Source: Candidatus Brocadia sp. (GTDB lineage Bacteria > Planctomycetota > Brocadiia > Brocadiales > Brocadiaceae). Taken from it: 32,000 nucleotides of DNA. The notes below the pieces were generated by a model. It was given only the letters and a program-made list of their open reading frames with translations, was not told where the DNA came from and made no database searches. The position numbers were made by a program, and so were the translations under genes. The stretch is from positions 3,360,001 to 3,392,000 of the forward strand of contig CP091279.1 in the NCBI GenBank assembly GCA_021650915.1, given 5' to 3'. The first letter of the stretch is position 1; every line of letters begins with the position of its first letter. This document shows, piece by piece, positions 2,731 to 32,000 of the stretch.

Positions 2731-3471
2731 CTAAATCCCGTCCCCGTCCTTATAATTTTTCATGAATATCGACATGATCTCTGATTCTGTTTCAGAAGCG
2801 GCATCATCCGCGTCGCTTGAAAGGTTTAACGTGTTTTCCAGTTTTTTTATCCGCTGTTTCAGTTTGCCATTTTCCTTTAATACCGTCATGATCGCCTCGG
2901 CAATAGGGTCGGGTAATTGCCCATGATCCAGCAAGGCTTCCTGTTCTCCCTTCTTTCGTTGTTTTATAATTCTGCCTGGCACACCGACTACCGTTGCATG
3001 AGGCGGCACGTCCTTCGTTATGACAGAACCGGATCCGATCCTCGCGCAATCGCCTATCGTTATATTCCCCAGGATGCAGGCGTTTGAACCTACAATAACC
3101 TTTTTGCCCAGGTTGGGATGTCTTTTCGTCTTTTCCGTCGTTGTGCCGCCGAGAACAACCCCTTTATAGAGGAGGCATCCATCGCCGATTACCGCGGTTT
3201 CACCAATCACCACGCCCATGCCGTGGTCAATAAATACCCCCCGTCCTATTTGCGCAGCCGGATGTATTTCAATTCCAGTCAAAAACCGGTTGATGTGTGA
3301 AATGAAACGGGATACGGTGATCCATTCTCTTCTCCACAGATAATGAGCTATCCGATGCAACCAGAGGGCGTGAATGCCCGGATAGCAGAGTAATACTTCA
3401 AATTTGCTCCGTGCTGCAGGATCATTTTGGAAAGCAACATTTATATCCTCGCGCAAACGGTCAAACATCAA
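2731..3471 (-). CDS. cysE: Serine O-acetyltransferase
   Basis: It has the N-terminal SATase helix region ('[15 protein letters not shown]...HRIAH.LW') followed by left-handed beta-helix hexapeptide repeats ('[32 protein letters not shown]'). It overlaps cysK by 4 nt. Confidence 0.9.
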
Positions 3472-4397
3472 AATTCCTTAAATAAGACCGTGGACAGATA
3501 GCGTTCGCCGGTATCGGGAAGCACAACCACAATCAGCTTTCCTTTGTTTTCAGGCCTTGCAGCCACCTGGAGTGCGGCGTGCATCGCTGCCCCGGAAGAG
3601 ATGCCGGCCAGGATCCCTTCCTGCCTGGCCAGTTGCCGGGATGCGGCAAATGCCTGTTCGTTCTTTACGGCAATGATTTCATCGATTACCTTCATATTGA
3701 GAATGTCCGGAACAAATCCCGCGCCGAGTCCCTGAATCTTATGCGGACCTGGTTTCCCGCCGGAAAGCACCGGTGAATCGGCGGGCTCCACGGCAACGAC
3801 CTTCAGCGATGGTTTCCGTTCCTTAATGACCTCGCCAACACCCGTAATCGTTCCCCCCGTGCCTACCCCTCCCACAAAGATATCGATTCTGCCATCCGTA
3901 TCATTCCATATCTCCTCGGCCGTTGTTTTGCGGTGTATCTCCGGATTTGCAAGATTTTTGAATTGCTGCGGTATAAACGAGTTCGGGGTATTCTTCTGTA
4001 GTTCTTCTGCCTTACTCACAGCGCCCTTCATTCCTTCAGCGCCGGGTGTCAGCACGATCTCTGCGCCAAATGCCTTCAGCAGGTCCCTGCGTTCTATACT
4101 CATCGTGTCCGGCATCGTTAAAATCAATTTATAGCCCCGCGCAGCAGCCACAAATGCCAGTGCAATACCCGTGTTGCCTGAAGTGGGTTCTATGATGATG
4201 GTGCTTTTACCAACCAAACCCGCCTTTTCCGCTGCTTCAATCATGGCGATCCCAATGCGGTCCTTTACGGAGCCCAAGGGATTAAATGATTCCATTTTGG
4301 CTACTACGGTAGACCCTAATCCTTTCGTAACATTATTTAATTTCACTAAGGGGGTGTCGCCAATCGTTTTCGTAATATCTTCATATATTTTTGCCAT
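3468..4397 (-). CDS. cysK: Cysteine synthase A (O-acetylserine sulfhydrylase)
   Basis: 309 aa. It carries '[10 protein letters not shown]', the PLP-lysine context '[11 protein letters not shown]', '[12 protein letters not shown]' and '[10 protein letters not shown]'. A strong RBS (AAGGAGA) lies upstream on the minus strand. Confidence 0.92.
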
Positions 4398-5327: not shown

Positions 5328-6281
5328 ATGATTAAAGTCGACCATTTGGCAAAACGTTATGCGGACGTATACGCAGTAGATCACATTTCATTTGAAGTGG
5401 AACAGGGGGAGATTTTAGGGCTTCTGGGACCAAATGGCGCCGGGAAGACGACAACGATGCGCATCCTGACCTGTTACATGCCGGCAACTTCCGGGACTGC
5501 CACGGTGTCCGGTTATGATGTCTTTCGTGATTCAATTAACGTGAGAAAGAATATCGGATATTTGCCCGAAAACGTACCTTTGTACCCTGAAATGCGGGTA
5601 AGGGAGTATCTTTCGTTCCGCGCAAAACTGAAGAAATTGCCGTACCGTGAGCGCAAGGCAAAGATTGGAGAATGTATTGAAAAATGCAGGATTGCGGATG
5701 TCCAGAATCAAATTATTGGCACTTTGTCCAAGGGTTACCGCCAAAGGGTAGGGTTGGCAGACACCCTTGTCCATGACCCGAAAATTCTCATCCTCGATGA
5801 GCCAACGATCGGACTCGACCCCAATCAGATCCGGCAGGTAAGGCAGTTGATAAAAGAATTAGGTGAAAGGCACACCATCTTGCTGTCGACTCATATCCTC
5901 CCTGAAGTTGAAATGCTCTGTGGCCGTGTCATTATTATCAACAAAGGCAAAATCGTCGCTATGGATACGCCGTCCAATCTGGCCGTTCAGCTAAGAAGCG
6001 GAAACAACATTTCCCTGGAAGTTCGCGGCAGTGGCGAAAAGATCAGAAATGCCCTGTCCGGTATCAGGGGCGTGAAAAAGGTCGTATGGCAGGAGAAGGG
6101 CGAACTGAGTAATTTTAATGTAGAGGCGGAAAGAGGTATGGACATTCGTGAAGACGTCTTTATGAGTATTGTAAAAAATAATGGCGTTATCCGGGAGATG
6201 AAACAGGCGTCTATTACCTTAGAAGAGATATTCCATCAGATCACTACGCAGGAACACCATGAACAGGAGGTAATGGCATAA
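5328..6281 (+). CDS. ABC-2 type transporter ATP-binding protein (GldA-like)
   Basis: It has Walker A 'GPNGAGKTT', the signature 'LSKGYRQRV' and Walker B 'ILILDEPT', plus an RBS (GGGGGAG) upstream. Confidence 0.9.
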   Translation: MIKVDHLAKRYADVYAVDHISFEVEQGEILGLLGPNGAGKTTTMRILTCYMPATSGTATVSGYDVFRDSINVRKNIGYLPENVPLYPEMRVREYLSFRAKLKKLPYRERKAKIGECIEKCRIADVQNQIIGTLSKGYRQRVGLADTLVHDPKILILDEPTIGLDPNQIRQVRQLIKELGERHTILLSTHILPEVEMLCGRVIIINKGKIVAMDTPSNLAVQLRSGNNISLEVRGSGEKIRNALSGIRGVKKVVWQEKGELSNFNVEAERGMDIREDVFMSIVKNNGVIREMKQASITLEEIFHQITTQEHHEQEVMA

Positions 6282-8769: not shown

Positions 8770-11226
8770 ATGAAACTGAAAACAACCATTATCCTTTTAA
8801 TTGTTGCCGCTATCGGTATTTCGTACGTCTTCCTTTACGAAAAGAAACAACTCCCCCAGGAAGAATGGGAACGGCTGCAAAAAAAAGTGTTGCCTGACTT
8901 TAAGGCGTCAATGATCAAAAAAATTGAATTGAACAATGAGGGTGGCAAGGTTATTCTGGAAAAGACCGCGGATAATTACTGGCATATCACAGAGCCCCTC
9001 AAGCTCCGTTCAGATAATTCTGAAGTCAACAGTATCCTCTCCGAGTTTGAATTTATGAATAAGGTTGGCTCGTTCAGCCAGGAAGGGGATAAGCCGTTTG
9101 ATCTCAAAGATTATGGTCTGGATGCCCCCACGATCTCCATTACCATGTACACCGACATCCCGGCAAAGCCTGATAAGATTCAGGTAATGGGACCGAAGGA
9201 TAAATATACGGTATTTGTTGGCAAAAAGCTTGCTGCCGGCGATAATGTGTATATAAAACTCGATGCAAGCGATGAGGTTGTGGTCGTGCCGGGCACCCTT
9301 CTTGGAAAAGTTACGAAAAATGTCCTTGATTTACGCAGTAAATGGGTGTTTGCCTTTGACAAGGATGCGGTAGAAAAGATTGAGGTGAAAACGGCAGACT
9401 ATCATATCGTTTGTGACCGGAAGGGCAGTTTCTGGCGTCTCTCTGAGCCGGTGAACGATTTGGCAGATCTGGAAAAAGTCCGGGACGTCCTTGGCAAGTT
9501 AAAGAATCTGCAGATAGACCGTGCCGACTTTATTACGGAGGATTCATCGGATTTAACGAAATTTGGGCTGGATAACCCCCGCTTTACCGTTACTCTTTAT
9601 GAAAAAGGAGTTTCGCAATCTGTTCTTTTCGGGCACTCTTTGGATAATAAGGTCTATGCGAAACGCACGGATGAACCTACAGTCTTTTTTCTGAAAGATA
9701 CGATTCTTGCAGATTTGAGCAAAAGACCAAACGACCTGAGAGACAGAAAGGTTGTGCGGTTCGATTCGATAGGAACCTACGGGATAAACAAATTGGAGAT
9801 CAAGACACCAGGCGACCTCATTACTATTGAAAAGACTTTGGATCTGGACTGGAAGCTTACCAAGCCCGTTAATATTTATGCAGACCAGGACACGGTTAAG
9901 AATTTTATTGAAAAGCTGAAAACCCTTGAGATAGAAGATTTTGTTTCGGATGCGCCAGCAGATTTATCCGCGTATGGTTTAAAAAACCCCGTCTTTGAGA
10001 TATCCGTCACCAAAGAGGAAGACAAGGAATTGGCTAAATTTTACGTGGGCAATATGTTGTCTGACGGCTCCAAATGTTACGTAAAACGCGTTGGAGAGGA
10101 ACCGGTATACACCGTTCCCACAACTGAATTCTATGACAAGATTGAGAATCCGCTCCTGCGTTTCCGCGACAGGCTGGTATGTGATTTTAACAAGGATTTG
10201 GTAAAAAAACTGGTTATTGAAAAACCGGACCGCACCTTTGTCTGCGATATAACAAACAGAAGAGATGCGGAAGGTCAATTCCAGTGGGAGCTCTCAAGGC
10301 CTGTTCAAACAATTGCGGACACAAATGCGATAAACCAGATTATATGGGACATGTCTTTTTTAAAGGTGGACAGCTATATTGTCAAAGCCCCGAAAGATCT
10401 GAAACCCTTCGGTTTAAATGACCCGAGGATCAAGGTGTCGGTAACCTATGAGAAGGCGCCAGAGACACCACCGGAAGAACAGGGTCAAAACAAGAAAGAG
10501 GAAAAGGCAGAAACCGGAGAAAAAGCAAAGGAATCTCTGGAAAAAATCGTTGAAACGAGGACGTTGCTTATTGGCAAAAAGCTTAAGGATGGCGATAAGG
10601 TTAGCTCCTATGGCATGTTTGCGGACAGTGATCTGGTGTTTGAGCTTCCCTGGCCCAAGATCAATAATCTGGATGCTGAATTGGCGCCAACCAGGATACT
10701 GAATTTTGAAAGAACGGACGTAAAAGAGCTAACGTTGAACTACAACGAAAGAACCATCTCGTTAAAAAAAATAAATAATGTCTGGAAATTAAAAAATGAT
10801 GAACAGAAGGAAGTCCAGGGACGAGAAGTGGATTACTTTATTCGCTCTTTGAATGAATTAAAAGGGAATTACATCGAACAATATAAAACAACAAACCTGA
10901 CGCAATTTTCGCTGGATAAACCACAGGCAATAATCACTATCGGATTGGAAGGCGGGGATGCCGTGCTGTATGTCGGAAAGAAGAAAGACACAGACGGCTA
11001 TTACCTGAAAAACAAAGATTCTGATTATATCTATGTCGTTGGCAACGAATCGGTTGCTAATCTGATAAAAAAGGAAGAAGATTTTACCACCTTGATTCAT
11101 GAAGCGATGCCGCAAATGTCCGGCGAAGAAGCAAAGGCGACAATGGATGAAATGTCCCTGGGTACTGCTCCGCATGTCCCACACGGGAAGCCGCCCAAGA
11201 GTTCCCCGCATGGTGGATTTCACTAA
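8770..11226 (+). CDS. Large DUF4340-like repeat protein (five tandem modules), N-terminal membrane anchor, His-rich C-terminus
   Basis: 818 aa with an N-terminal TM segment ('TIILLIVAAIGISYVFL'). The motif pair 'W.L.EP....AD...V...L..L' and 'DL..(F/Y)GLD.P...(V/I)' recurs five times. It occupies the position normally taken by a DUF4340 protein after GldG. Confidence 0.75.
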   Translation: MKLKTTIILLIVAAIGISYVFLYEKKQLPQEEWERLQKKVLPDFKASMIKKIELNNEGGKVILEKTADNYWHITEPLKLRSDNSEVNSILSEFEFMNKVGSFSQEGDKPFDLKDYGLDAPTISITMYTDIPAKPDKIQVMGPKDKYTVFVGKKLAAGDNVYIKLDASDEVVVVPGTLLGKVTKNVLDLRSKWVFAFDKDAVEKIEVKTADYHIVCDRKGSFWRLSEPVNDLADLEKVRDVLGKLKNLQIDRADFITEDSSDLTKFGLDNPRFTVTLYEKGVSQSVLFGHSLDNKVYAKRTDEPTVFFLKDTILADLSKRPNDLRDRKVVRFDSIGTYGINKLEIKTPGDLITIEKTLDLDWKLTKPVNIYADQDTVKNFIEKLKTLEIEDFVSDAPADLSAYGLKNPVFEISVTKEEDKELAKFYVGNMLSDGSKCYVKRVGEEPVYTVPTTEFYDKIENPLLRFRDRLVCDFNKDLVKKLVIEKPDRTFVCDITNRRDAEGQFQWELSRPVQTIADTNAINQIIWDMSFLKVDSYIVKAPKDLKPFGLNDPRIKVSVTYEKAPETPPEEQGQNKKEEKAETGEKAKESLEKIVETRTLLIGKKLKDGDKVSSYGMFADSDLVFELPWPKINNLDAELAPTRILNFERTDVKELTLNYNERTISLKKINNVWKLKNDEQKEVQGREVDYFIRSLNELKGNYIEQYKTTNLTQFSLDKPQAIITIGLEGGDAVLYVGKKKDTDGYYLKNKDSDYIYVVGNESVANLIKKEEDFTTLIHEAMPQMSGEEAKATMDEMSLGTAPHVPHGKPPKSSPHGGFH

Positions 11227-20492: not shown

Positions 20493-21302
20493 CTAAATTT
20501 CGAATAAATTCCCCTGTCCCACGTTATCTAAATTGCCCTGATCCATGACCAATGGGTAGTGCAACATCCAGCTCGTAAATATCCCCAGAATGATCGATAT
20601 TACAAAGCTGATCATGGTGCCGATTAATATGTATTCTGCTTCCTTCCGGCCTTTCAGTGTCCGGGTTTCACCAAATCGCAGGATGGATTTTGCGGCGATC
20701 AGGAACCCAATGGCCTCAAAGTGGTTGAGCAGAATAAAGGTCAGAATCAAGACCCGTTCCAGGCGCCCAATCCATAGTCCGGCCTTCTCCAGGCCCTGGA
20801 AAGGGGTTTCTTTGGTTATTTCACTCCGCCATGGTTTGGTAATTTTGCCGATCAGGGCGCCGGCCGGCCAAATTACCAGAATATAGGCCAGTATGACGGT
20901 CCAAAACCGTACGCTTGATGTAAAGGTGAACAGAAATAAAACAATATCCGATAACGTGCCAGGGATCAATAATATCCAGCAACCTAAGATGATAATACCA
21001 TGTCCCAGGTGATCCAGCGCGAAAAATCGGGCGGTATCTTCTCCCTGAGGCTTTAATGCGTCCCGTAAAACGTGTGCAATAAAAATAACAAACGGGAGCC
21101 ACAGGGCATTCCAGATGCCTGCAAGGGTATAGGCGAGCGCCCCGGCGCATATCCCGTGCAGATAGAGCCAGCAAGACCGCCATGTATTCCCTGGCCACTG
21201 CTCCATTTTGGAATCCTGTTGCAGGAAAAAGTCTGCAACCACGTGGGCCACGACAAGACGGAGGAGCAACGATATATCGCTTTGACTCAACGGATGGTAC
21301 AT
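20493..21302 (-). CDS. DUF3307-family (SatE-like) polytopic membrane protein
   Basis: 269 aa. The N-terminal 'LLLRLVVAHVVADFFLQ' is the DUF3307 signature, and there are multiple TM segments with conserved His residues. The start ATG overlaps the SatD-like stop (TAATG). Confidence 0.65.
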   Translation of the reverse strand: MYHPLSQSDISLLLRLVVAHVVADFFLQQDSKMEQWPGNTWRSCWLYLHGICAGALAYTLAGIWNALWLPFVIFIAHVLRDALKPQGEDTARFFALDHLGHGIIILGCWILLIPGTLSDIVLFLFTFTSSVRFWTVILAYILVIWPAGALIGKITKPWRSEITKETPFQGLEKAGLWIGRLERVLILTFILLNHFEAIGFLIAAKSILRFGETRTLKGRKEAEYILIGTMISFVISIILGIFTSWMLHYPLVMDQGNLDNVGQGNLFEI

Positions 21303-22009
21303 TATAAGCTCCTGTACTTATTTTTATCCATTATAAGCCTCTGTGCTTCCTTTTCCCGGATTACCTGTTCATATCGCTGGCACCACTTCTCGATAGCCCA
21401 GCTACCGGCGCTTTTTAAGCGTTGACGGACCGCTGGCTGGGAAACGCCGAATTCCCTGGCAGCCTTTTCCTGGGTTAAACCCCTGATCCGGCCAAGTATT
21501 GCCTGTGCCTGTTCGCCGGACAACCGGCTTATCAGGGCATCGAGCAGGGCGCATGCTGCGTCCAGTTCTCCATCAACCTCTTGCCACGGAGTCCTTATTA
21601 ACAGTCGCTGGTCGCCCTTCATCTCATCTAAGGTCTGCCCGGAGCGGCGAAAAGCCTCGCCGTCCCCTTCAGATCCACGGCTGGCAGGAAGAAAGTCGAT
21701 GCGCCCAATCCCCACGGCAATCCGTGCATCCAGTGCATGGCGGCGTTGTTTTGTTTCAAAACCGTGGCGCAGACTGGTGCGGATGGCGATTGCTACCCGT
21801 AGCGCTGCATCCGGCCTGGATAGCACCCCCTGAAAACTATCTCCACGGTGAATTTCAAAGGGTGCGCGTATTCCATCAGGCAGGAGATTTTTAATGGTAG
21901 TAAACGAAGATTTGAGAACCAACAATAAACATCTCCGCTGGCTGGTCGTGAGTTTTGATGATCCGACGATGTCTCCGGTTACAACCGCATACAGAGCGTT
22001 CTTTCTCAT
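21302..22009 (-). CDS. SatD-like protein: N-terminal cyclase-like/palm-like domain + C-terminal sigma-70 region-4-type HTH
   Basis: 235 aa. The N-terminus reads 'YAVVTGDIVGSSKL', '..HRGDSFQGV..' and 'ARIAVGIGRI'. The C-terminus reads 'GLTQEKAAREFGVSQPAVRQRLKSAG' (HTH). The family assignment is from memory of SatD (Streptococcus mutans sat operon) features. Confidence 0.6.
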   Translation of the reverse strand: MRKNALYAVVTGDIVGSSKLTTSQRRCLLLVLKSSFTTIKNLLPDGIRAPFEIHRGDSFQGVLSRPDAALRVAIAIRTSLRHGFETKQRRHALDARIAVGIGRIDFLPASRGSEGDGEAFRRSGQTLDEMKGDQRLLIRTPWQEVDGELDAACALLDALISRLSGEQAQAILGRIRGLTQEKAAREFGVSQPAVRQRLKSAGSWAIEKWCQRYEQVIREKEAQRLIMDKNKYRSL

Positions 22010-25624: not shown

Positions 25625-26041
25625 TTACTTAAGGAGCAATATGCCGCCCAGAATAAGCAACACGCCTACTGCCTTGGACAGGGTAATCTCTTCGCCCAGA
25701 AAAATCCAACCCAAAAGGAAAGAAAATACGGGATAGCAGCAGGTAACGGGGATAATCTTTGATATCTCACCTGTCTTGAGCGCCTTGTAAAATACCAGTT
25801 GTGCCACAACACCCGCCAGAATACCGGCAAGGACAAGAAAAAAAATGGCCTTGATCCCCATTTTCCCAAAAGAGGGAAACTGAGGGGTAAAAGCGATCAG
25901 AATTACGACACCCAGGAAGACGCCCGAACATCGTATCAGGTATGCGGCGGTTGGCTCAACTGATGAGAGGCCGACCTTCTCTAAAAAGGGTACAAATCCC
26001 CAGATAAAGGCCGTCAGTAAGGCAAGGAAAAACGCTTCCAT
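25625..26041 (-). CDS. Small EamA/DMT-superfamily membrane protein (single EamA domain)
   Basis: 138 aa with 4-5 hydrophobic helices and an EamA-like C-terminus 'LGEEITLSKAVGVLLILGGILLL'. It sits 8 nt upstream of the kinase gene on the same strand. Confidence 0.65.
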   Translation of the reverse strand: MEAFFLALLTAFIWGFVPFLEKVGLSSVEPTAAYLIRCSGVFLGVVILIAFTPQFPSFGKMGIKAIFFLVLAGILAGVVAQLVFYKALKTGEISKIIPVTCCYPVFSFLLGWIFLGEEITLSKAVGVLLILGGILLLK

Positions 26042-26238
26042 ACGATTGCTCCGATAAATTTTTGAGAAAATACCCTAGAGCGTTTCATTTCATAATTATA
26101 ATAAAACCGGAGAAAAAATTCTTTAACAATATTTTCATGGCCTTTGGGATGTCGTGCTGTATTGTATTCTCTATGTAGGTAACTATTCAGCGTTCTTTTG
26201 CTCACAATTACTATGAGTGAATAACATGTTGATGCTGT

Positions 26239-26397
26239 AATCCCGGAGGGATGACATGATTATAGCATATGGTCATGCAATTACGGTTAGCCTCAGAGGG
26301 GCGACATGGTATCACTCATTTCGCCATATTTCAGCCCTATGGGGTTAAATATGGCGGTGTGCCTTATCCTATAATCATGTCGTCCCTCTTCGGGATT
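26239..26397. repeat. REPIN/MITE-like composite element, copy 1 (159 bp, about 27-bp terminal inverted REPs)
   Basis: A forward REP AATCCCGGAGGGATGACATGATTATAG lies at 26239-65. A forward variant is at 26289-315, a reverse variant at 26323-46, and a reverse REP CTATAATCATGTCGTCCCTCTTCGGGATT at 26369-97. Confidence 0.8.
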
Positions 26398-26600
26398 TTT
26401 CGGTCTGTCCATTTTCCCTGTTGGCTCTTAACTATACGGAGAAGATATTCTCTGTCAATTTTTGTTGAATAGTTGCTCCTTCAGGCTTTTCAGATGCCCT
26501 GAACCGTCCTGCTCTTTCTTGATTTTACCCGTATTTTTAGGGCATTCAAGATGATTTGAGGCTTGTATGTTTTCATCAAATCTGATATGTTTTTATTACG

Positions 26601-29404
26601 ATGATTAATCAAACGCCCGAACAAATAGCGCGAGACCTTATTGACAAGCAACTCACTGCCTGCGGCTGGCTTATTCAGAAAAAGAATCAGGTTAATCTTC
26701 ACGCAGGAATTGGAGTTGCAGTTCGTGAGTATCTGACTGATGCGGGGGTAGCCGACTATGTTCTGTTTGTTGATGAGAAACCCGTTGGTGTTATTGAAGC
26801 CAAGCGTGAGGAAGAAGGACACCGCCTCACCATACATGAAATCCAATACATGAAATCCAATCCGAAGGATATGCCTCGGCAAAACTCAAATACCTGAATA
26901 ACGAAAAACTCCCCTTTGTGTATGAAAGCACAGGGGAAGTGACCCGGTTCACCGACTTCAGAGACCCCAAACCACGGTCAAGGCCGGTATTTTCCTTTCA
27001 CCGCCCGGAAACCTTTCGTGAGTGGCGGAAGAGATCAAAATCGTTCCGTGGTAGCTTGTCTGACCTACCCGCGCTGCCCGTCGAAAGACTGCGTGATTGC
27101 CAAGTTACGGCCATTAACAACCTTGAAACATCCTTCAAGGATAATCGCCCAAAGGCATTGGTTCAGATGGCAACGGGCTCCGGGAAAACCTATACCGCCA
27201 TCACGTTTATCTATCGTTTACTGAAATACACCCATGCAAAACGCATATTGTTTCTGGTTGACACCAAAAATCTGGGCGAACAGGCAGAACAGGAGTTCAT
27301 GGCGTATCAGCCAAATGATGACAACCGCAAGTTCACCGAGTTGTATGGTGTATATCGCTTGAAATCAAGCAACATTCCTACTGACAGCCAGGTTTACATC
27401 AGCACTATCCAACGTTTGTATTCCATTCTGAAAGGAACGGAACTGGAAGAAGGCGCCGAGGAAGAAAATCCGAATGAGAGAAGTTGGCAGCCGAAAGAAG
27501 TCCCGCCCGTCGAATACAATGAAAAACTGCCGGTTGAATTCTTTGATGTTGTGGTGATTGACGAATGCCACCGTAGTATTTACAACCTGTGGAAACAGGT
27601 GCTGGAATACTTTGACGTCTTCCAGGTGGGATTAACCGCAACACCTGACCAACGCACGGTGGCCTACTTTGATCAGAACCTGGTCTCGGAATATTCCCAC
27701 GAAATAGCCGTGGCCGACGGCGTGAATGTAGGTTACGATGTGTTTCTTATTGATACACGAGTCACCCAACAGGGCGCTACCTTCTGGAAAGGCGTGTATG
27801 TGGAGCACCGTGAACGATTGAACAGGAAGAAACGGCTGGAGTTGCAGGATGAGGATGAGGCATACACCGCACAGCAGTTGGACAGGGACGTGGTGAACCC
27901 GAATCAAATCCGCACGATTATTCGTACGTTCAAGGAACATTTGCCCGAAATATTTCCCGATCGCTACAATGGGGAGGGTGAATTTGAAGTGCCCAAGACA
28001 CTCATCTTTGCCAAGACCGATTCCCACGCTGACGACATCATTCAGATTGTCCGTGAGGAGTTTGCCGAAGGAAATCATTTCTGCAAAAAAGTGACTTACA
28101 AGGCAGTCGAAGACCCAAAGTCGGTGCTGGCGCAATTCCGCAACGAGTACCACCCGAGGATTGCCGTTACGGTTGACATGATTGCCACCGGCACGGATGT
28201 GAAGTCATTGGAATGTCTGCTTTTCATGCGTGACGTAAAAAGCCGGAATTATTTTGAACAGATGAAAGGCAGGGGCACACGGACCGTTCCCTTTGATGAC
28301 CTGAAAAAGGTTTCACCTTCGGCCAAATACACCAAAGACCATTTTGTGATCGTGGATGCCATCGGCGTTACCAGGAGTTTGAAAACCGACAGCCGTCCGT
28401 TGGAAAAGAAGCCCGGCGTGCCCTTAAAAGACTTGCTGGCAGCCATTGCCGTAGGCGCGCGGGAGGAAGAGTTGTTTACTTCCGTTGCCAACCGCTTGAC
28501 ACGCCTGGAAAAACAGATTACCGACAAGGAGAAAATACAATTTTCTGCAAAGGCCAACGGCAAAACCGTTACGCAGGTGGCAAAGGAATTATTGAATGCC
28601 TTCAATCCCGATACCCTGGAAGATTTACGTGCGAGGGTAGAACGCGAAAATCCCGGAGCAGCGCCCGTTGTGAAGGAAGAAAAATACAATCACCTGCAAG
28701 CTGAATTGCAGAACAACGCAGCTAAGGTATTTACCGGTGAGTTGAATGAATATATTGAAAATGTACGCAAGGCACATGAACAGAAGATTGATATGCAGAA
28801 TCCCGATACCGTAATCAATGTGGGCTGGAACAGCGACAACAAGACAAAGGCGGAAACCCTGGTGCGGGATTTTAAGGCGTGGATAGAGCAGCACAAGGAC
28901 GAAATCACTGCCTTGCAGATTTTTTATGCGCAGCCATATCGCAGGCGTGAACTCACCTACGCCATGATGAAAGAGGTGTTAGAAAGATTGAAGACTGAAA
29001 AGCCCGTCCTTGCGCCCATGCAGGTGTGGCGCGCCTATGAGCACCTGGATGCTGTAACAAGCGCAGCACGAGGCAGCCCGCGGAATGAGCTGATTGCGTT
29101 GGTCTCCCTGATCCGTAAAGTTTCAGGCGTTGACAAGACACTGACGGCTTACGACAAAACCGTGGACAAAAATTTTCAGAGCTGGGTGTTTAAGAAACAG
29201 GCAGGCGCATTGAAGTTTACGGAAGAACAGATGCAATGGTTGCGGATGATAAAAGACCACATCGCCACCAGCATCCACCTTGATGCCGACGACCTGGATT
29301 ACACACCCTTCGATGCCGCCGGTGGCAAGGGAAAGATGTATCAGCTCTTTGGCGACAGGATGAATGAGATTATTAACGAACTCAATGAGGCATTGGCGGC
29401 ATAA
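26601..29404 (+). pseudogene. hsdR: Type I restriction enzyme R subunit (EcoEI/IB-like C-terminus), frameshifted by a 14-bp tandem duplication
   Basis: The N-terminal PD-(D/E)xK nuclease ('ADYVLFVDEKPVGVIEAKRE') is in ORF 26601-26897. The helicase part ('MATGSGKTYT', 'VVIDECHRS', 'GLTATP', 'QMKGRGTR') and an EcoEI_R_C-like tail are in ORF 26918-29404. Removing one 14-bp unit joins the two frames. Confidence 0.88.
26832..26861 (+). repeat. 14-bp perfect tandem duplication (ACATGAAATCCAAT x2) causing the hsdR frameshift
   Basis: Bases 26834-26847 are identical to 26848-26861, and the identity extends 2 nt to the left. The duplication re-encodes 'IHEIQ' in the second frame. Confidence 0.95.
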
Positions 29405-29513
29405 TGATTGACAGAAATCCCGTAGCGTGATTTGGGTTTGTAACCAGCAACCAATAGTTTGTCTGCCAGCAACATCGGAAATTCAAAGTGGATAAATGTA
29501 GAGCTGGCAGTAC

Positions 29514-29760
29514 AATCCCGAAGGGATGACATGATTATAACAAGGTAAAATAAAATTGTATTTGAATCCCGGAGGGATGACACAAATCATTTCACCCCTT
29601 CGGGGTTGTGTGGTGGCGGTGGTTGGTTTTCTATAATCATTACACACCTTCGGTGTTTAATATATGCCATAAATTAAGCAGCAAAGCCCGAAGGGCTGAT
29701 ATTATTATAGGAAAACGAGAAAAAGAAAATTAATAAACCCTGAAAGGGTGATATAAATAT
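29514..29760. repeat. REP array between hsdR and hsdS: composite element copy 2 (29514-29658) plus two further REP variants
   Basis: A forward REP lies at 29514-40 and a forward variant at 29565-90. A CCCC-TTCG-GGGG hairpin is at 29595-605, and a reverse variant at 29631-58. Further forward variants are AAGCCCGAAGGGCTGATATTATTATAG at 29684-710 and AAACCCTGAAAGGGTGATATAAATAT at 29735-60. Confidence 0.8.
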
Positions 29761-31267
29761 GGTTGACAGAAAACAAATACCGCCAAGTTGGGAAGTTGTG
29801 AAACATAGTGAAATTGCAGAAATAAATCCTAAACTTCCTTTTAAAAATATTGATGACAACACCGAAGTTTCATTTCTTCCAATGAAATTAGTTGAAGAAG
29901 AAAAAAATATTTTCTATCTCACTGAATTCAGAAAATACAAGGATGTAAAAAAAGGTTTCACCCCATTTACAAATGGTGATGTGATTTTTGCAAAGATTAC
30001 GCCGTGTATGGAGAACGGAAAATGTGTCGTTCTACATGATCTTAAAAATGAAGTTGGTTTCGGTTCAACGGAGTTTCATGTTTCACGACCAAGAGAATGT
30101 GTCATCGCTAAGTACATTTTTTATTCCATTATTCAACAGCAATTCAGAAGAATTGCAGAAAGTAATATGACTGGCAGTGTAGGACAGAAAAGAGTTACAA
30201 CGCTATTTTTTTCCGAGTTTGAAATTCCTCTTCCCCCTTTCCCCGAACAACACCGCATTGTTTCCAAAATAGAAGAACTCTTCAGCGAATTAGACAAAGG
30301 CATTGAAAGTTTAAAAACCGCCCATCAGCAACTCAAAATCTACCGTCAGGCCGTGTTGAAGTGGGCTTTTGAAGGAAGGTTGACCGAGGAATGGAGAAAA
30401 GAAAACTCAATTTTAAATACAGCCTATGACTATTTAAGACAAGTATCGGAAATACGTAAGAAGAATTTTTTAGAAGCTAAGAAAAATGGTATAAAGAGGA
30501 TTGAAAAAAATTATGATTTTGAATTTAGACGAAGTGAGGAAATAAAAACTTGGGCAAATGCCACTTTGAATAAATTAATCTACATAGCGGGTAGAATAGG
30601 ATGGAGAGGTTTAACAAAAGATGAATACACAATTGAAGGCCCAATGTTTTTGAGTGTGCATTCACTTAACTATGGAAAGTATGTAGAGTTTAAAGACGCT
30701 TATCATATTTCCGAAGAAAGGTATTTAGAAAGTCCAGAGATAATGCTTAAAGAAAAAGATATATTGCTTTGTAAAGATGGTGCAGGTATTGGTAAAATTG
30801 GCATCATTAATAAACTTCCATCGGAGGCAACGGTAAATTCCTCTTTGCTTATAATAAGAGGCATGGAAATATTTATCCCGGAGTTTTTATATCATCTGCT
30901 AAGTGGACCTAAGCTACAGGGTATAGTACGAAAACGAATCACCGGAAGTGCTACTCCTCACTTATTCCAAAATGATATTAGAAAATTTGAACTTCTTATT
31001 CCTCCCCTTGAAGAACAACATCAAATTGTTTCAGAAATAGAAACCCGCCTTTCCGTATGCGATAAATTGGAAGAAACCATAACAACCGCCTTGCGGCAAG
31101 GCGATGCCCTGCGGCAGAGTATTTTAAAAAAGGCATTTGAGGGAAGGCTGGTTGAGCAAGACCCCAATGACGAACCGGCATCAAAACTCCTGGAGAGGAT
31201 AAAGGCAGACAAGGTAAAGGGTATGACAAAGGATGATACACGAAAGAAGAAAATCCCGAAGGGATGA
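29759..31267 (+). CDS. hsdS: Type I restriction-modification specificity subunit (two TRDs)
   Basis: 502 aa. The two conserved coiled-coil spacers are 'PEQHRIVSKIEELFSELDKGIESLK...LKWAFEGRL' and 'EEQHQIVSEIETRLSVCDKLEE...LKKAFEGRL'. Each follows a variable target-recognition domain. Confidence 0.9.
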   Translation: MVDRKQIPPSWEVVKHSEIAEINPKLPFKNIDDNTEVSFLPMKLVEEEKNIFYLTEFRKYKDVKKGFTPFTNGDVIFAKITPCMENGKCVVLHDLKNEVGFGSTEFHVSRPRECVIAKYIFYSIIQQQFRRIAESNMTGSVGQKRVTTLFFSEFEIPLPPFPEQHRIVSKIEELFSELDKGIESLKTAHQQLKIYRQAVLKWAFEGRLTEEWRKENSILNTAYDYLRQVSEIRKKNFLEAKKNGIKRIEKNYDFEFRRSEEIKTWANATLNKLIYIAGRIGWRGLTKDEYTIEGPMFLSVHSLNYGKYVEFKDAYHISEERYLESPEIMLKEKDILLCKDGAGIGKIGIINKLPSEATVNSSLLIIRGMEIFIPEFLYHLLSGPKLQGIVRKRITGSATPHLFQNDIRKFELLIPPLEEQHQIVSEIETRLSVCDKLEETITTALRQGDALRQSILKKAFEGRLVEQDPNDEPASKLLERIKADKVKGMTKDDTRKKKIPKG

Positions 31268-31496
31268 CATGATTATAGCATTGAAATACAAAATCAAATT
31301 TGAATCCTGAAAGGATGACATAAATAATTTCACCCCTACGGGGTTTGCGTGGTGGCGATGATTGGTTTTCTATAATAATCACACCCCTTTGGGGTTAAAA
31401 AACAATCGCGTGCCGATGTACTATGATAATGCCATCCCTTCGGGATTAAAAAACATTGGCTGAACAATAAAATCCAGAAGGGAAATATGATTATAG
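31252..31496. repeat. REP array between hsdS and the transposase gene: composite element copy 3 (31252-31396) plus two more REPs
   Basis: An exact forward REP lies at 31252-78 and contains the hsdS stop codon. A forward variant is at 31303-28 and a reverse variant at 31370-96. A reverse REP CTATGATAATGCCATCCCTTCGGGATT is at 31421-47, and a forward REP at 31471-96 runs into the transposase RBS. Confidence 0.8.
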
Positions 31497-31506
31497 GAGG
31501 AATACT

Positions 31507-31968
31507 ATGGCAGGCACATTTTCACAAGTTTACATTCAAGTTGTCTTCACGGTAAAAGGATGGGAAAATCTCATTGGTAAGGAGTGGAAAGATGAATTGC
31601 ATAGATACATTGCCGGAGTCATCAAAGGTAAAGAACAAAAGCCAATCATTGTCAACGGAATGCCTGACCATATTCATGCCTTTGTCGGGTTGCGGCCAGC
31701 TATGGCTATTTCCGATTTGGTCCGTGATATCAAAAACAATTCATCCAATTTTATCAATGAGAATAAATTAGTGAAAGGGAAATTTTCCTGGCAGGAAGGA
31801 TATGGCGTATTTTCATATTCTCATTCACACATTCAGAATGTTTACGATTACATTTTGAATCAGGAGGAACATCACCGCACGAAAACATTCAGAGAGGAAT
31901 ACATTGACTTTTTGAAGAAATTTGAAATTGAATACAATGAAAAATATTTGTTTGAGTGGATGGAGTAA
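31507..31968 (+). CDS. REP-associated tyrosine transposase (RAYT) / IS200-family Y1 HUH transposase
   Basis: 153 aa. It has the HUH motif 'PDHIHAF' and a catalytic Tyr region 'VYDYILNQEEHH', with an N-terminal 'YIQVVFTVK' strand as in IS200-like TnpA. REP hairpins flank it on both sides, and no tnpB lies between it and the window end. Confidence 0.8.
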   Translation: MAGTFSQVYIQVVFTVKGWENLIGKEWKDELHRYIAGVIKGKEQKPIIVNGMPDHIHAFVGLRPAMAISDLVRDIKNNSSNFINENKLVKGKFSWQEGYGVFSYSHSHIQNVYDYILNQEEHHRTKTFREEYIDFLKKFEIEYNEKYLFEWME

Positions 31969-31985
31969 TATTTCTCCCATGCATG

Positions 31986-32000
31986 AATCCCGAAGGGATG
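31986..32000 (+). repeat. Forward REP copy truncated by the window end
   Basis: AATCCCGAAGGGATG starts 17 nt after the transposase stop codon and is identical to the first 15 nt of the REP consensus. Confidence 0.7.

Follow-up and report, generated by a model that had tools for sequence, protein, structure and literature searches.

How has a type I restriction locus come to carry clusters of short palindromes in every one of its gaps, and was mobile DNA recruited to it as a defence locus? The question is raised by the last 6 kb of a 32,000-nt stretch of a Candidatus Brocadia sp. genome (contig CP091279.1, positions 3,360,001 to 3,392,000; hereafter the window), in which three composite elements built from repetitive extragenic palindromes (REPs), designated copies 1, 2, and 3, accompany the restriction genes hsdR and hsdS and a gene for a Y1 transposase of the HUH type. 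An earlier note on this DNA had described the three copies as a mobile non-autonomous element colonising, or being recruited to, the locus. Our analysis shows that the composites are derivatives of a transposase unit devoid of its open reading frame (ORF), and it suggests that the restriction locus was probably invaded by a system of REPs and Y1 transposase and that copy 1 was mobilised secondarily by an element bounded by terminal inverted repeats (TIRs). The transposase gene with its immediate ends, and not the composites, is non-randomly linked to type I operons.

REP modules and composite elements

The REPs of the window follow the consensus AATCCCGAAGGGATGACATGATTATAG, with a hairpin stem of 4-5 bp and then a conserved 14-nt tail, and all of them lie between positions 26239 and 32000 (Table 1). 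A 23-nt REP pattern allowing up to 3 mismatches gave 7 matches, all located at 26242-31444, compared with 0.01 expected by chance. None fell within positions 1-26000, in agreement with the earlier observation that the first 26 kb hold no copy, and looser REP scans of the window left this part likewise empty. Nor were REPs found outside the locus in a contig of Candidatus Brocadia fulgida (LAQJ01000087, referred to as L001; L numbers denote the fetched loci). With the extra REPs included, about 17 REP modules were counted in roughly 5.8 kb. A REP-like match within hsdR (28163-28187, GCCGTTACGGT TGACATGATTGCCA, 4 mismatches in the tail) was set aside as a probable chance occurrence in a conserved helicase motif. 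The Rfam search of the region 25900-32000 returned no known RNA family, the sub-threshold matches to plant microRNA precursors reflecting long hairpins.

Each composite contains four hairpin modules, two forward (f and f') followed by two reverse (r' and r), the direct modules being 51-52 bp apart. The three copies are present at the positions reported before, and the single architecture formerly ascribed to them holds for module order and REP ends, which copy 1 has in common with copies 2 and 3; the spacers of copy 1 differ, and this copy is enclosed in a TIR element of ~301 bp. Over about 147 bp, copies 2 and 3 can be aligned collinearly with 83-84% identity, and copy 1 belongs to another subfamily than these two. 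The core 'TGGCGGTG', which had been noted as conserved, is so within the Brocadiaceae copies and is missing in the relatives from Desulfobacteraceae and Bacteroidota. Full-length relatives of copy 1 were found in about 20 loci of Brocadia and Jettenia, with 70-83% identity across all 159 bp and the spacers kept, and relatives of copies 2 and 3 with equal spacing and a different linker sequence occur in a Desulfobacteraceae genome. Since internal parts and spacing are conserved in these Brocadiaceae copies and in Desulfobacteraceae, the composite is a real unit beyond the 27-nt REP that its copies share, as the earlier note had assumed.

The ends of copy 1 are, as had been noted, inverted repeats of 27 nt; their complementarity is 89%, and as single-stranded DNA this copy is predicted to form a single long stem (-40 kcal/mol, z = -7.8). 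In the predicted fold of copy 2, module f pairs with r', and the final REP folds by itself. A long hairpin of the type formed by REPINs (REP doublets forming hairpins) was rejected as a reading for all copies, as it is good for copy 1 only; in copies 2 and 3, module f has another stem than module r (TCCC versus CACC or CCCC). Each of these stems is still self-complementary, which points to the local hairpins as the conserved feature. Across modules, the 4-bp stem is retained via compensatory changes (TCCC/GGGA, CCCC/GGGG, CACC/GGTG, GCCC/GGGC, and CCCT/AGGG). In the stem test, all cells were paired (52/52), three of the four pairs vary on both sides, and the observed score was reached by none of 500 shuffles, with the caveat that several modules had been chosen by a filter requiring a stem.

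The transposase unit and the origin of the composites

The intact transposase unit, as found in other taxa, consists of f, a 24-nt spacer, f', the transposase ORF, r', a 24-nt linker, and r. Copies 1-3 and a further composite, which begins at the very end of the window and is complete in L001 (10478-10640), align collinearly with the joined ends of such units, namely 85 nt upstream of the start codon and 100 nt downstream of the stop codon (units of L112, L165, L188, L213, L172, L182, L222, and L138). The collinearity with both left and right ends of full units indicates that the 145-160-bp composites are ORF-less derivatives of the transposase unit, and they may be described as non-autonomous elements, similar to REPINs or to miniature inverted-repeat transposable elements (MITEs), in which the left end is fused to the right end. 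In the composite at L001 10478-10640, ACGGCAGGAACG persists as a relic of the start of the transposase gene, ATGGCAGGAAC. A composite thus is to the transposase unit what a MITE is to its autonomous transposon. The proposal of a mobile non-autonomous element gains from these joined ends, as well as from the lack of clusters 1 and 2 in related loci (see below).

In nearly all loci, a forward REP is located ~65 bp upstream and a reverse REP ~50 bp downstream of the transposase gene; the reverse REP downstream of the gene studied here is seen in L001 (10610-10634). The local clustering of REPs is what a REP-associated transposase gene would lead one to expect. The elements had been said to sit exactly in the gaps between genes. 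They do lie at gene junctions, and two of them extend into hsdS: the final five codons of this gene, with the stop codon, are provided by the first REP of copy 3 (31252-31267), and the REP at 29736-29762 holds the hsdS ATG, much as the f' hairpin of full units directly precedes the transposase ATG.

Outside the window, the exact REP pattern was detected in at least 120 loci of many phyla by a pattern scan of genome contigs; the matches listed are mostly from Bacteroidota, and among them are many REP-bearing loci in other Brocadiaceae genomes. Tandem REP arrays were observed in Bacteroidota, forward upstream and reverse downstream of the transposase gene, with periods of ~36, 50-52, 96, or 111 bp (L138 4780-4938; L162 1004-1256; L202 5585-5969 and 6509-6731; also L011, L033, and L079).

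The 153-aa transposase has the motifs DHIH, WQ (as SWQ), and YILNQEEHH, read in its translation, and scores 62.2 bits with the NCBIfam IS200 model NF033573, above the cut-off of 55. These correspond to the motifs of TnpA-Y1 subclass 1.2, to which the protein would be assigned by comparison with Table 1 and the text of Quentin et al. (2018; PMC6006769). In that study, subclass 1.2 is characterized by the motifs DH[IV]H, WQ, and Y---Q--HH and a length of about 148 aa, and its members are low-copy, lack IS200-type end structures and REPs, and are found mostly in Cyanobacteria and Bacteroidetes (Quentin et al., 2018). At the locus studied here, a Y1 class reported as repeat-less has both REPs and ORF-less derivatives.

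The transposase has more than 8000 homologues, and those listed with 80-100% identity come from Brocadia, Jettenia, Ignavibacteriae, Runella, Desulfobacteraceae, and Chitinophagaceae. The gene is also present in a locus of a Calditrichaceae metagenome-assembled genome (MAG; L046), and a homologue labelled Ignavibacteriae is 84% identical. The identity across phyla is 76-84%. Planctomycetota, Bacteroidota, Desulfobacterota, and Calditrichota all have nearly the same protein and hairpin. In general, REPs and their transposases are regarded as specific to lineages of Proteobacteria, in which they reside by vertical inheritance. The window belongs to a Brocadia genome close to that of B. fulgida. 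Within Brocadia, the protein is identical residue for residue in L001, in L002 (an anammox enrichment contig), and in a 4.05-Mb Brocadia contig. The number of transposase copies is not always one: two were found in L062, two in L202, and two variants on one 3.49-Mb contig. The copies of L202 (6001-6459 and 8661-9119) occupy two different junctions of one restriction locus. REP-associated tyrosine transposases (RAYTs) are described as present in one copy per genome, and two copies per restriction locus, as in L062 and L202, are at odds with this habit.

Copy 1 forms the core of the ~301-bp TIR element, and in many Brocadiaceae loci the flanks of this copy have been conserved along with it. The 14-bp termini GTAACTATTCAGCG occur as inverted pairs 249-533 bp apart and, among the fetched loci, are confined to those of Brocadiaceae; in the window, this terminus occurs only once. 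In 5-6 of the nine complete copies found elsewhere, 7-8 of 8 bases are duplicated at AT-rich targets, and one copy of the TIR element is inserted in a REP tail. The earlier note had proposed target-site duplications and empty sites as marks of insertion; the former are thus found at copies elsewhere, whereas the copy in the window has no clear 8-bp duplication, and the latter is provided by B. sinica, in which the orthologous site with equal flanking genes lacks 26173-26513. A ~38-bp flanking duplication considered at the copy 1 insertion was dismissed as not significant (222/2000 shuffles). GTAA termini and 8-bp target duplications are typical of the IS66 family, and we take the ends of the TIR element, with their GTAA start and 8-bp duplications, to resemble those of this family. 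No autonomous partner with GTAACTATTCAGCG termini was found around the IS66 gene of L131/L132 or in any other fetched locus. As the core of the TIR element, copy 1 would have arrived by a second route, one that fits mobilisation by a DDE transposase. A promoter-like site was observed in the right arm of the TIR element (26431-26458, minus strand; TTGACA, 16 nt, TATAGT; a match to 11 of 12 consensus positions and nothing more), facing through the REP core toward an EamA gene (25625-26041, minus strand).

Insertion sites, restriction operons, and decay of the locus

A relic hsdS start that overlaps the hsdR stop duplicates the live start ATGGTTGACAGAAA, located 355 bp downstream, and between the two lies the inserted REP cluster 2 (Table 1). 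The live ATG lies in the tail of an f'-type hairpin, like the transposase leader elsewhere. In L153 and L155, whose HsdR proteins are 76-78% identical to that of the window, the hsdR stop and the hsdS start overlap (TAATG) with no REP between them, and these two loci represent the empty site of copy 2. A 392-bp unit composed of a composite and an hsdS remnant is present in L001 and missing in L003.

The transposase gene and its clusters, copy 3 included, are bracketed by two copies of an hsdS 3'-end stretch, the right one just past the window end; the corresponding pairs are located at 5759-5944 and 6886-7071 in L002, and at 9564-9747 and 10689-10872 in L001. Comparison of filled and empty sites of the Runella-type family revealed ~30-36 bp of the junction between the hsdM end and the hsdS start repeated on either side of the unit; as a result, the upstream gene retains its end and the downstream gene its start. 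Direct repeats of target DNA flank the transposase unit across loci, their length varying between about 24 and 312 bp (e.g., L112 1329-1367/1978-2016; L182 5906-5929/6555-6578; L172 147-302/1288-1445; L131-L136 5588-5899/6627-6938). Relative to a null of reversed flanks, flanking duplications exceed the maximum in 10 of 56 non-redundant loci and the 95th percentile in 17 of 56, the entry for L197 being a coordinate artefact.

The claim that the locus attracted these elements as a defence locus does not hold for the composites and does hold for the transposase gene. Among the matches listed, none of the 111 dispersed REP loci without a transposase gene (~720 kb) is near restriction genes, and hsd matches in the whole listed set (at least 120 REP-pattern loci, 774 kb) are limited to two loci that also hold a transposase gene. 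The composite as such is thus not recruited to defence loci. The closest 80 metagenomic homologues of the transposase (76-95% identity), in turn, include 23 with hsdM, hsdR, or hsdS in the available flanks (23/80 vs. 0/111, Fisher p = 2e-10), and hsd genes accompany 16 of the 51 homologues with 1.5 kb of flank or more. The transposase gene is co-oriented with the hsd genes in each of the 28 listed loci that have hsd matches. The host systems are diverse: Runella and Brocadia have HsdR and HsdM proteins that are only 25-26% identical, with transposases at 84%, and at least 7 further mutually distant type I systems were verified with Pfam (L161, L183, L190, L194, L217, L222, and L229). In the Runella-type family, the gene lies between hsdR and hsdM or between hsdM and hsdS, both junctions being occupied in L202. 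Three further loci have a large N6_N4 DNA methylase gene directly downstream of the transposase gene. Other homologues flank housekeeping genes (gcvP, biotin carboxylase, electron transfer flavoprotein, and a kinase-regulator pair), and 37 of 44 neighbouring genes are co-oriented. Literature searches on RAYT or IS200 genes inside type I restriction loci, on MITEs in Brocadia, and on target duplications of REPINs found nothing relevant. In two of the type I loci, the HsdR beside the transposase gene was observed to have a GIY-YIG nuclease domain inserted in the helicase region (L194 1330-3291; L229 1492-4377).

The gene calls made earlier for hsdR, hsdS, and the transposase are confirmed by Pfam. 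The locus runs past the window end in the order hsdR, hsdS, Y1 transposase, FRG-domain gene, and hsdM, the last two being read in L001, which places the transposase gene within a type I restriction-modification operon. The type I system is incomplete as an intact set, with hsdS whole, hsdM beyond the window (L001), and hsdR frameshifted by a tandem duplication (ATACATGAAATCCA twice). Removal of one 14-bp unit restores a 929-aa protein collinear with the intact HsdR of L153 and L155. The split of hsdR into 98-aa and 828-aa frames recurs in the independent assembly L001, and the 98-aa frame is also found in L002. In B. sinica, the transposase gene is kept at the syntenic site (its position is syntenic in B. 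fulgida as well), and hsdR, hsdS, and hsdM are reduced to remnants. In Brocadia BIN37 (L062), hsdR and hsdS are lost and the transposase gene is present twice in tandem (3196-3654 and 3841-4299). The Jettenia locus comprises hsdS, the transposase gene, and a split hsdM. The locus of the window also illustrates mobile hairpin DNA alongside the decay of a defence locus, with hsdR frameshifted here, hsdR, hsdS, and hsdM lost in sister species, and the transposase gene retained.

Table 1. Features of the restriction locus and its repeats in the window
Feature	Position	Strand	Description
TIR-bounded miniature element (~301 bp) carrying copy 1	26179-26479	+	left terminus GTAACTATTCAGCG; right terminus degenerate (GTTGAATAGTTGC)
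Copy 1 core	26239-26397	+	f 26239-26265, f' ~26289-26315, r' ~26323-26349, r 26369-26397
hsdR	26601-29404	+	Pfam HSDR_N, ResIII, EcoEI_R_C; two reading frames, 26601-26897 (98 aa) and 26918-29404 (828 aa)
14-bp tandem duplication frameshifting hsdR	26832-26859	+	ATACATGAAATCCA x2; frame comparison with intact relatives
Relic hsdS start	29404-29417	+	ATGATTGACAGAAA; overlaps hsdR stop; duplicates live start 29759-29772
Inserted REP cluster 2	29418-29758	+	341 bp between relic and live hsdS start
Copy 2 composite	29514-29658	+	f 29514-29540, f' 29565-29591, r' 29581-29607, r 29631-29658
Two forward REPs 52 bp apart, left-end-like pair	29684-29710 and 29736-29762	+	repeat families, module scan
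hsdS	29759-31267	+	502 aa, intact; Pfam Methylase_S
Left copy of ~184-bp direct duplication of hsdS 3' end	31069-31254	+	right copy just past window end, downstream of transposase gene
Copy 3 composite	31252-31396	+	f 31252-31278, f' 31303-31329, r' 31319-31345, r 31370-31396
Extra reverse REP	31421-31447	-	51 bp past r module of copy 3
Forward REP variant	31470-31496	+	tail merges into AGGAGG, 5 nt upstream of transposase ATG
Y1 (HUH) transposase gene	31507-31968	+	153 aa; Pfam Y1_Tnp E = 1.5e-23
Further four-hairpin composite, start only	31984-32000	+	cut by window end; whole copy at L001 10478-10640

Several observations concern the surroundings of the locus and its relatives. The upstream genes in the window are unrelated to restriction (EamA, histidine kinase, and sigma-54 regulator by Pfam), and a gene pair on the minus strand (20493-22009), encoding a DUF3307 protein and a SatD-family protein with a sigma-70 region 4 domain, is unrelated to the repeats. 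No integron integrase lies in the locus of the window, and on that account an attC reading of the repeats was set aside; an integrase near the Jettenia hsdS is missing from L127. Downstream of the transposase gene, B. sinica (L131/L132 7719-9957) has gained a gene with a DruA domain (DUF4338) and an IS66 transposase gene that interrupt the FRG gene, and L148 (1-1226) has a DruA-Tn5-type fusion and IS110 beside its transposase copy; both neighbourhoods look like sinks for mobile DNA. Compared with the window, L001 lacks single bases in G runs within REPs (GGATG vs. GGGATG in the window; e.g., L001 8015-8037 and 10482-10504); these differences are probably homopolymer sequencing errors of that assembly.

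Explanations and known systems

If the locus was invaded by a REP/Y1-transposase system, as we consider probable, the HUH/Y1 enzyme would recognise the short G+C-rich hairpins and their 14-nt tails on single-stranded DNA, and would cut and rejoin at the hairpins, moving or copying full and miniature units in trans, mostly near its own gene. Such local mobilisation in trans would account for the 17 REP modules that are spread over all gaps of the locus and for the lack of any in the neighbouring 26 kb. The association with type I operons would most likely arise from tolerated, non-polar insertion at junctions combined with hitch-hiking on mobile, hard-to-delete restriction cassettes, the operon tolerating those insertions that are sense-oriented and preserve the junction. 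Restriction cassettes spread horizontally, and disrupting them is costly, which would explain the association as well as the spread across phyla; the frequent decay of host systems argues against an element depending on restriction function. We more tentatively suggest, with doubts prevailing, that this Y1 subclass 1.2 clade represents a hairpin-ended element specialised for operons, above all those of type I systems, which would enter in sense orientation at junctions, duplicate the junction to a variable extent, bring its own hairpin-plus-start region, and persist by riding on protective cassettes that cross phyla. If this were true, the duplications of ~24 to 312 bp would imply an insertion chemistry or repair pathway undescribed for HUH transposons.

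Several findings weigh against the invasion of the locus by a REP/Y1 system of this kind. The protein scores 26.4 bits with the NCBIfam REP_Tyr_transpos model, below the cut-off of 80, and its Y motif is that of class 1 (Y---Q--HH) and not the class 2 TnpA-REP signature (Y---NP), so that the label RAYT rests on context. Copy 3 folds weakly as a long hairpin (z = -1.75). The variable target duplications of ~24 to 312 bp are left unexplained by the proposed mechanism; to our knowledge, members of the IS200/IS605 family make no target duplications, and the duplications are thus not accounted for by a known insertion or repair route. About 11 of the 23 restriction-positive loci represent the Brocadia-type cassette and 5 the Runella-type one, and the ranking of the 80 homologues was by similarity to a query from within a restriction locus, by which the association is inflated; this makes the size of the enrichment uncertain, not its existence. 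The same composition and ranking, together with the homologues that lie by housekeeping genes, would favour the view that the link between transposase and type I systems is a sampling artefact, produced by a few widely spread cassettes that dominate the nearest homologues. We regard this as unlikely, though by no means negligible, given the at least 7 further mutually distant type I systems, the differing junctions within one family with L202 doubly occupied, and the 0/111 control REP loci among the matches listed.

The remaining alternatives concern the repeats themselves. The hairpin clusters could be native regulatory parts of the operon (terminators, attenuators, or mRNA stabilisers setting subunit ratios) instead of mobile DNA. 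They share the orientation of the operon and lie precisely at its gene junctions, some hairpins with T runs score as terminator-like, and REP tails provide the region just upstream of the hsdS start and the AGGAGG before the transposase gene; however, the clusters of copies 1 and 2 are missing from related loci with equal flanking genes, the elements derive from the transposase unit and recur in unrelated contexts and phyla, and many host systems are decayed (hsdR frameshifted here, hsdM split or lost elsewhere), which makes a regulatory role highly improbable. It is also improbable, though slightly less so, that a DDE transposase moved all three copies as ordinary MITEs bounded by TIRs, with the Y1 neighbour irrelevant. 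The position of copy 1 inside an element with 14-bp TIRs, the 8-bp duplications at copies elsewhere, and the short outer inverted repeats of the Desulfobacteraceae copies are in line with it, but copies 2 and 3 lack such termini, their homology ends at the REP ends, GTAACTATTCAGCG is found only once in the window, and the composites correspond to the ends of the Y1 unit in every module; moreover, no DDE gene with matching ends was found in the fetched loci, the IS66 copy of L132 being without them. Finally, REP pairs could delimit cassettes, and genes flanked by them, such as hsdS, could be mobilised by the Y1 enzyme in an integron-like manner that shuffles restriction subunits. hsdS is indeed preceded by f and f', the second hairpin abutting its ATG as in the transposase unit, and followed by r' and r; the relic start codon would mean that the 5' end of hsdS was rebuilt, and, in several loci, duplicated pieces of hsdS and hsdM surround the transposase gene. 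Yet no REP-flanked hsd gene was seen in a second copy, the duplicated pieces are short gene ends devoid of target-recognition domains, an integrase is lacking, and simple target duplication accounts for the fragments equally well, so that we give this scheme very little credence.

The sense-oriented embedding in type I operons and the variable duplications make the function of REP transposases and the spread of their repeats directly testable, and the system offers biochemistry a set of natural sites with and without the insertion, of partners in full-length and miniature form, and of defined junctions.

Among known systems, the invading REP/Y1 system is similar to REPtrons in having a small Y1 HUH gene between inverted short palindromic repeats that are densest beside the gene, and, to judge from the REP-bearing loci of other Brocadiaceae genomes, probably also in the dispersal of the same repeats in extragenic DNA, either single or in inverted doublets that may form a long hairpin as in REPINs. 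The Brocadia system differs from REPtrons in its class 1 protein (subclass 1.2), which does not reach the cut-off of the NCBI RAYT model, in having two hairpins per arm with a spacing of about 51 bp, each with a stem of 4-5 bp and the conserved 14-nt tail, and in the occurrence of near-identical proteins (76-95%) and REPs across phyla, some genomes having two copies. With subclass 1.2 it shares the motifs DH[IV]H, WQ, and Y---Q--HH, the length of about 150 aa, and the occurrence in Bacteroidota; in contrast to the published description (Quentin et al., 2018; PMC6006769), it has clear inverted hairpin ends and dispersed derivatives, and its range also includes Brocadiaceae, Desulfobacteraceae, and a Calditrichaceae MAG. 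The bacterial interspersed mosaic elements (BIMEs) of E. coli are likewise REP mosaics of alternating orientation with short linkers conserved within a lineage and a location between co-transcribed genes, although the sequences are unrelated and the Brocadia mosaic equals the ends of a transposase unit.

The IS200/IS605 family with its palindrome-associated transposable elements (PATEs) is comparable in that the cut-off of the IS200 model is reached, the miniatures are two ends joined with the ORF deleted, and the subterminal hairpins are likely recognition sites on single-stranded DNA. The ends of the Brocadia units are mutually inverted, whereas those of IS200/IS605 are both read on one strand, and long variable target duplications are frequent here, whereas IS200/IS605 elements make none as far as we know. 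The element at 26179-26479, and only this one, resembles IS66-derived MITEs in its GTAA start and 8-bp duplications, features generally associated with IS66; it differs from them in that no autonomous partner was found in the fetched loci and that its core is a REP composite of another transposon class. Thus, the locus contains a system of a known kind, REPs and a Y1 transposase with miniature derivatives, and its new features are the subclass of the enzyme, the ends with four hairpins, the nesting inside a second MITE, the embedding in operons, and the variable duplications.

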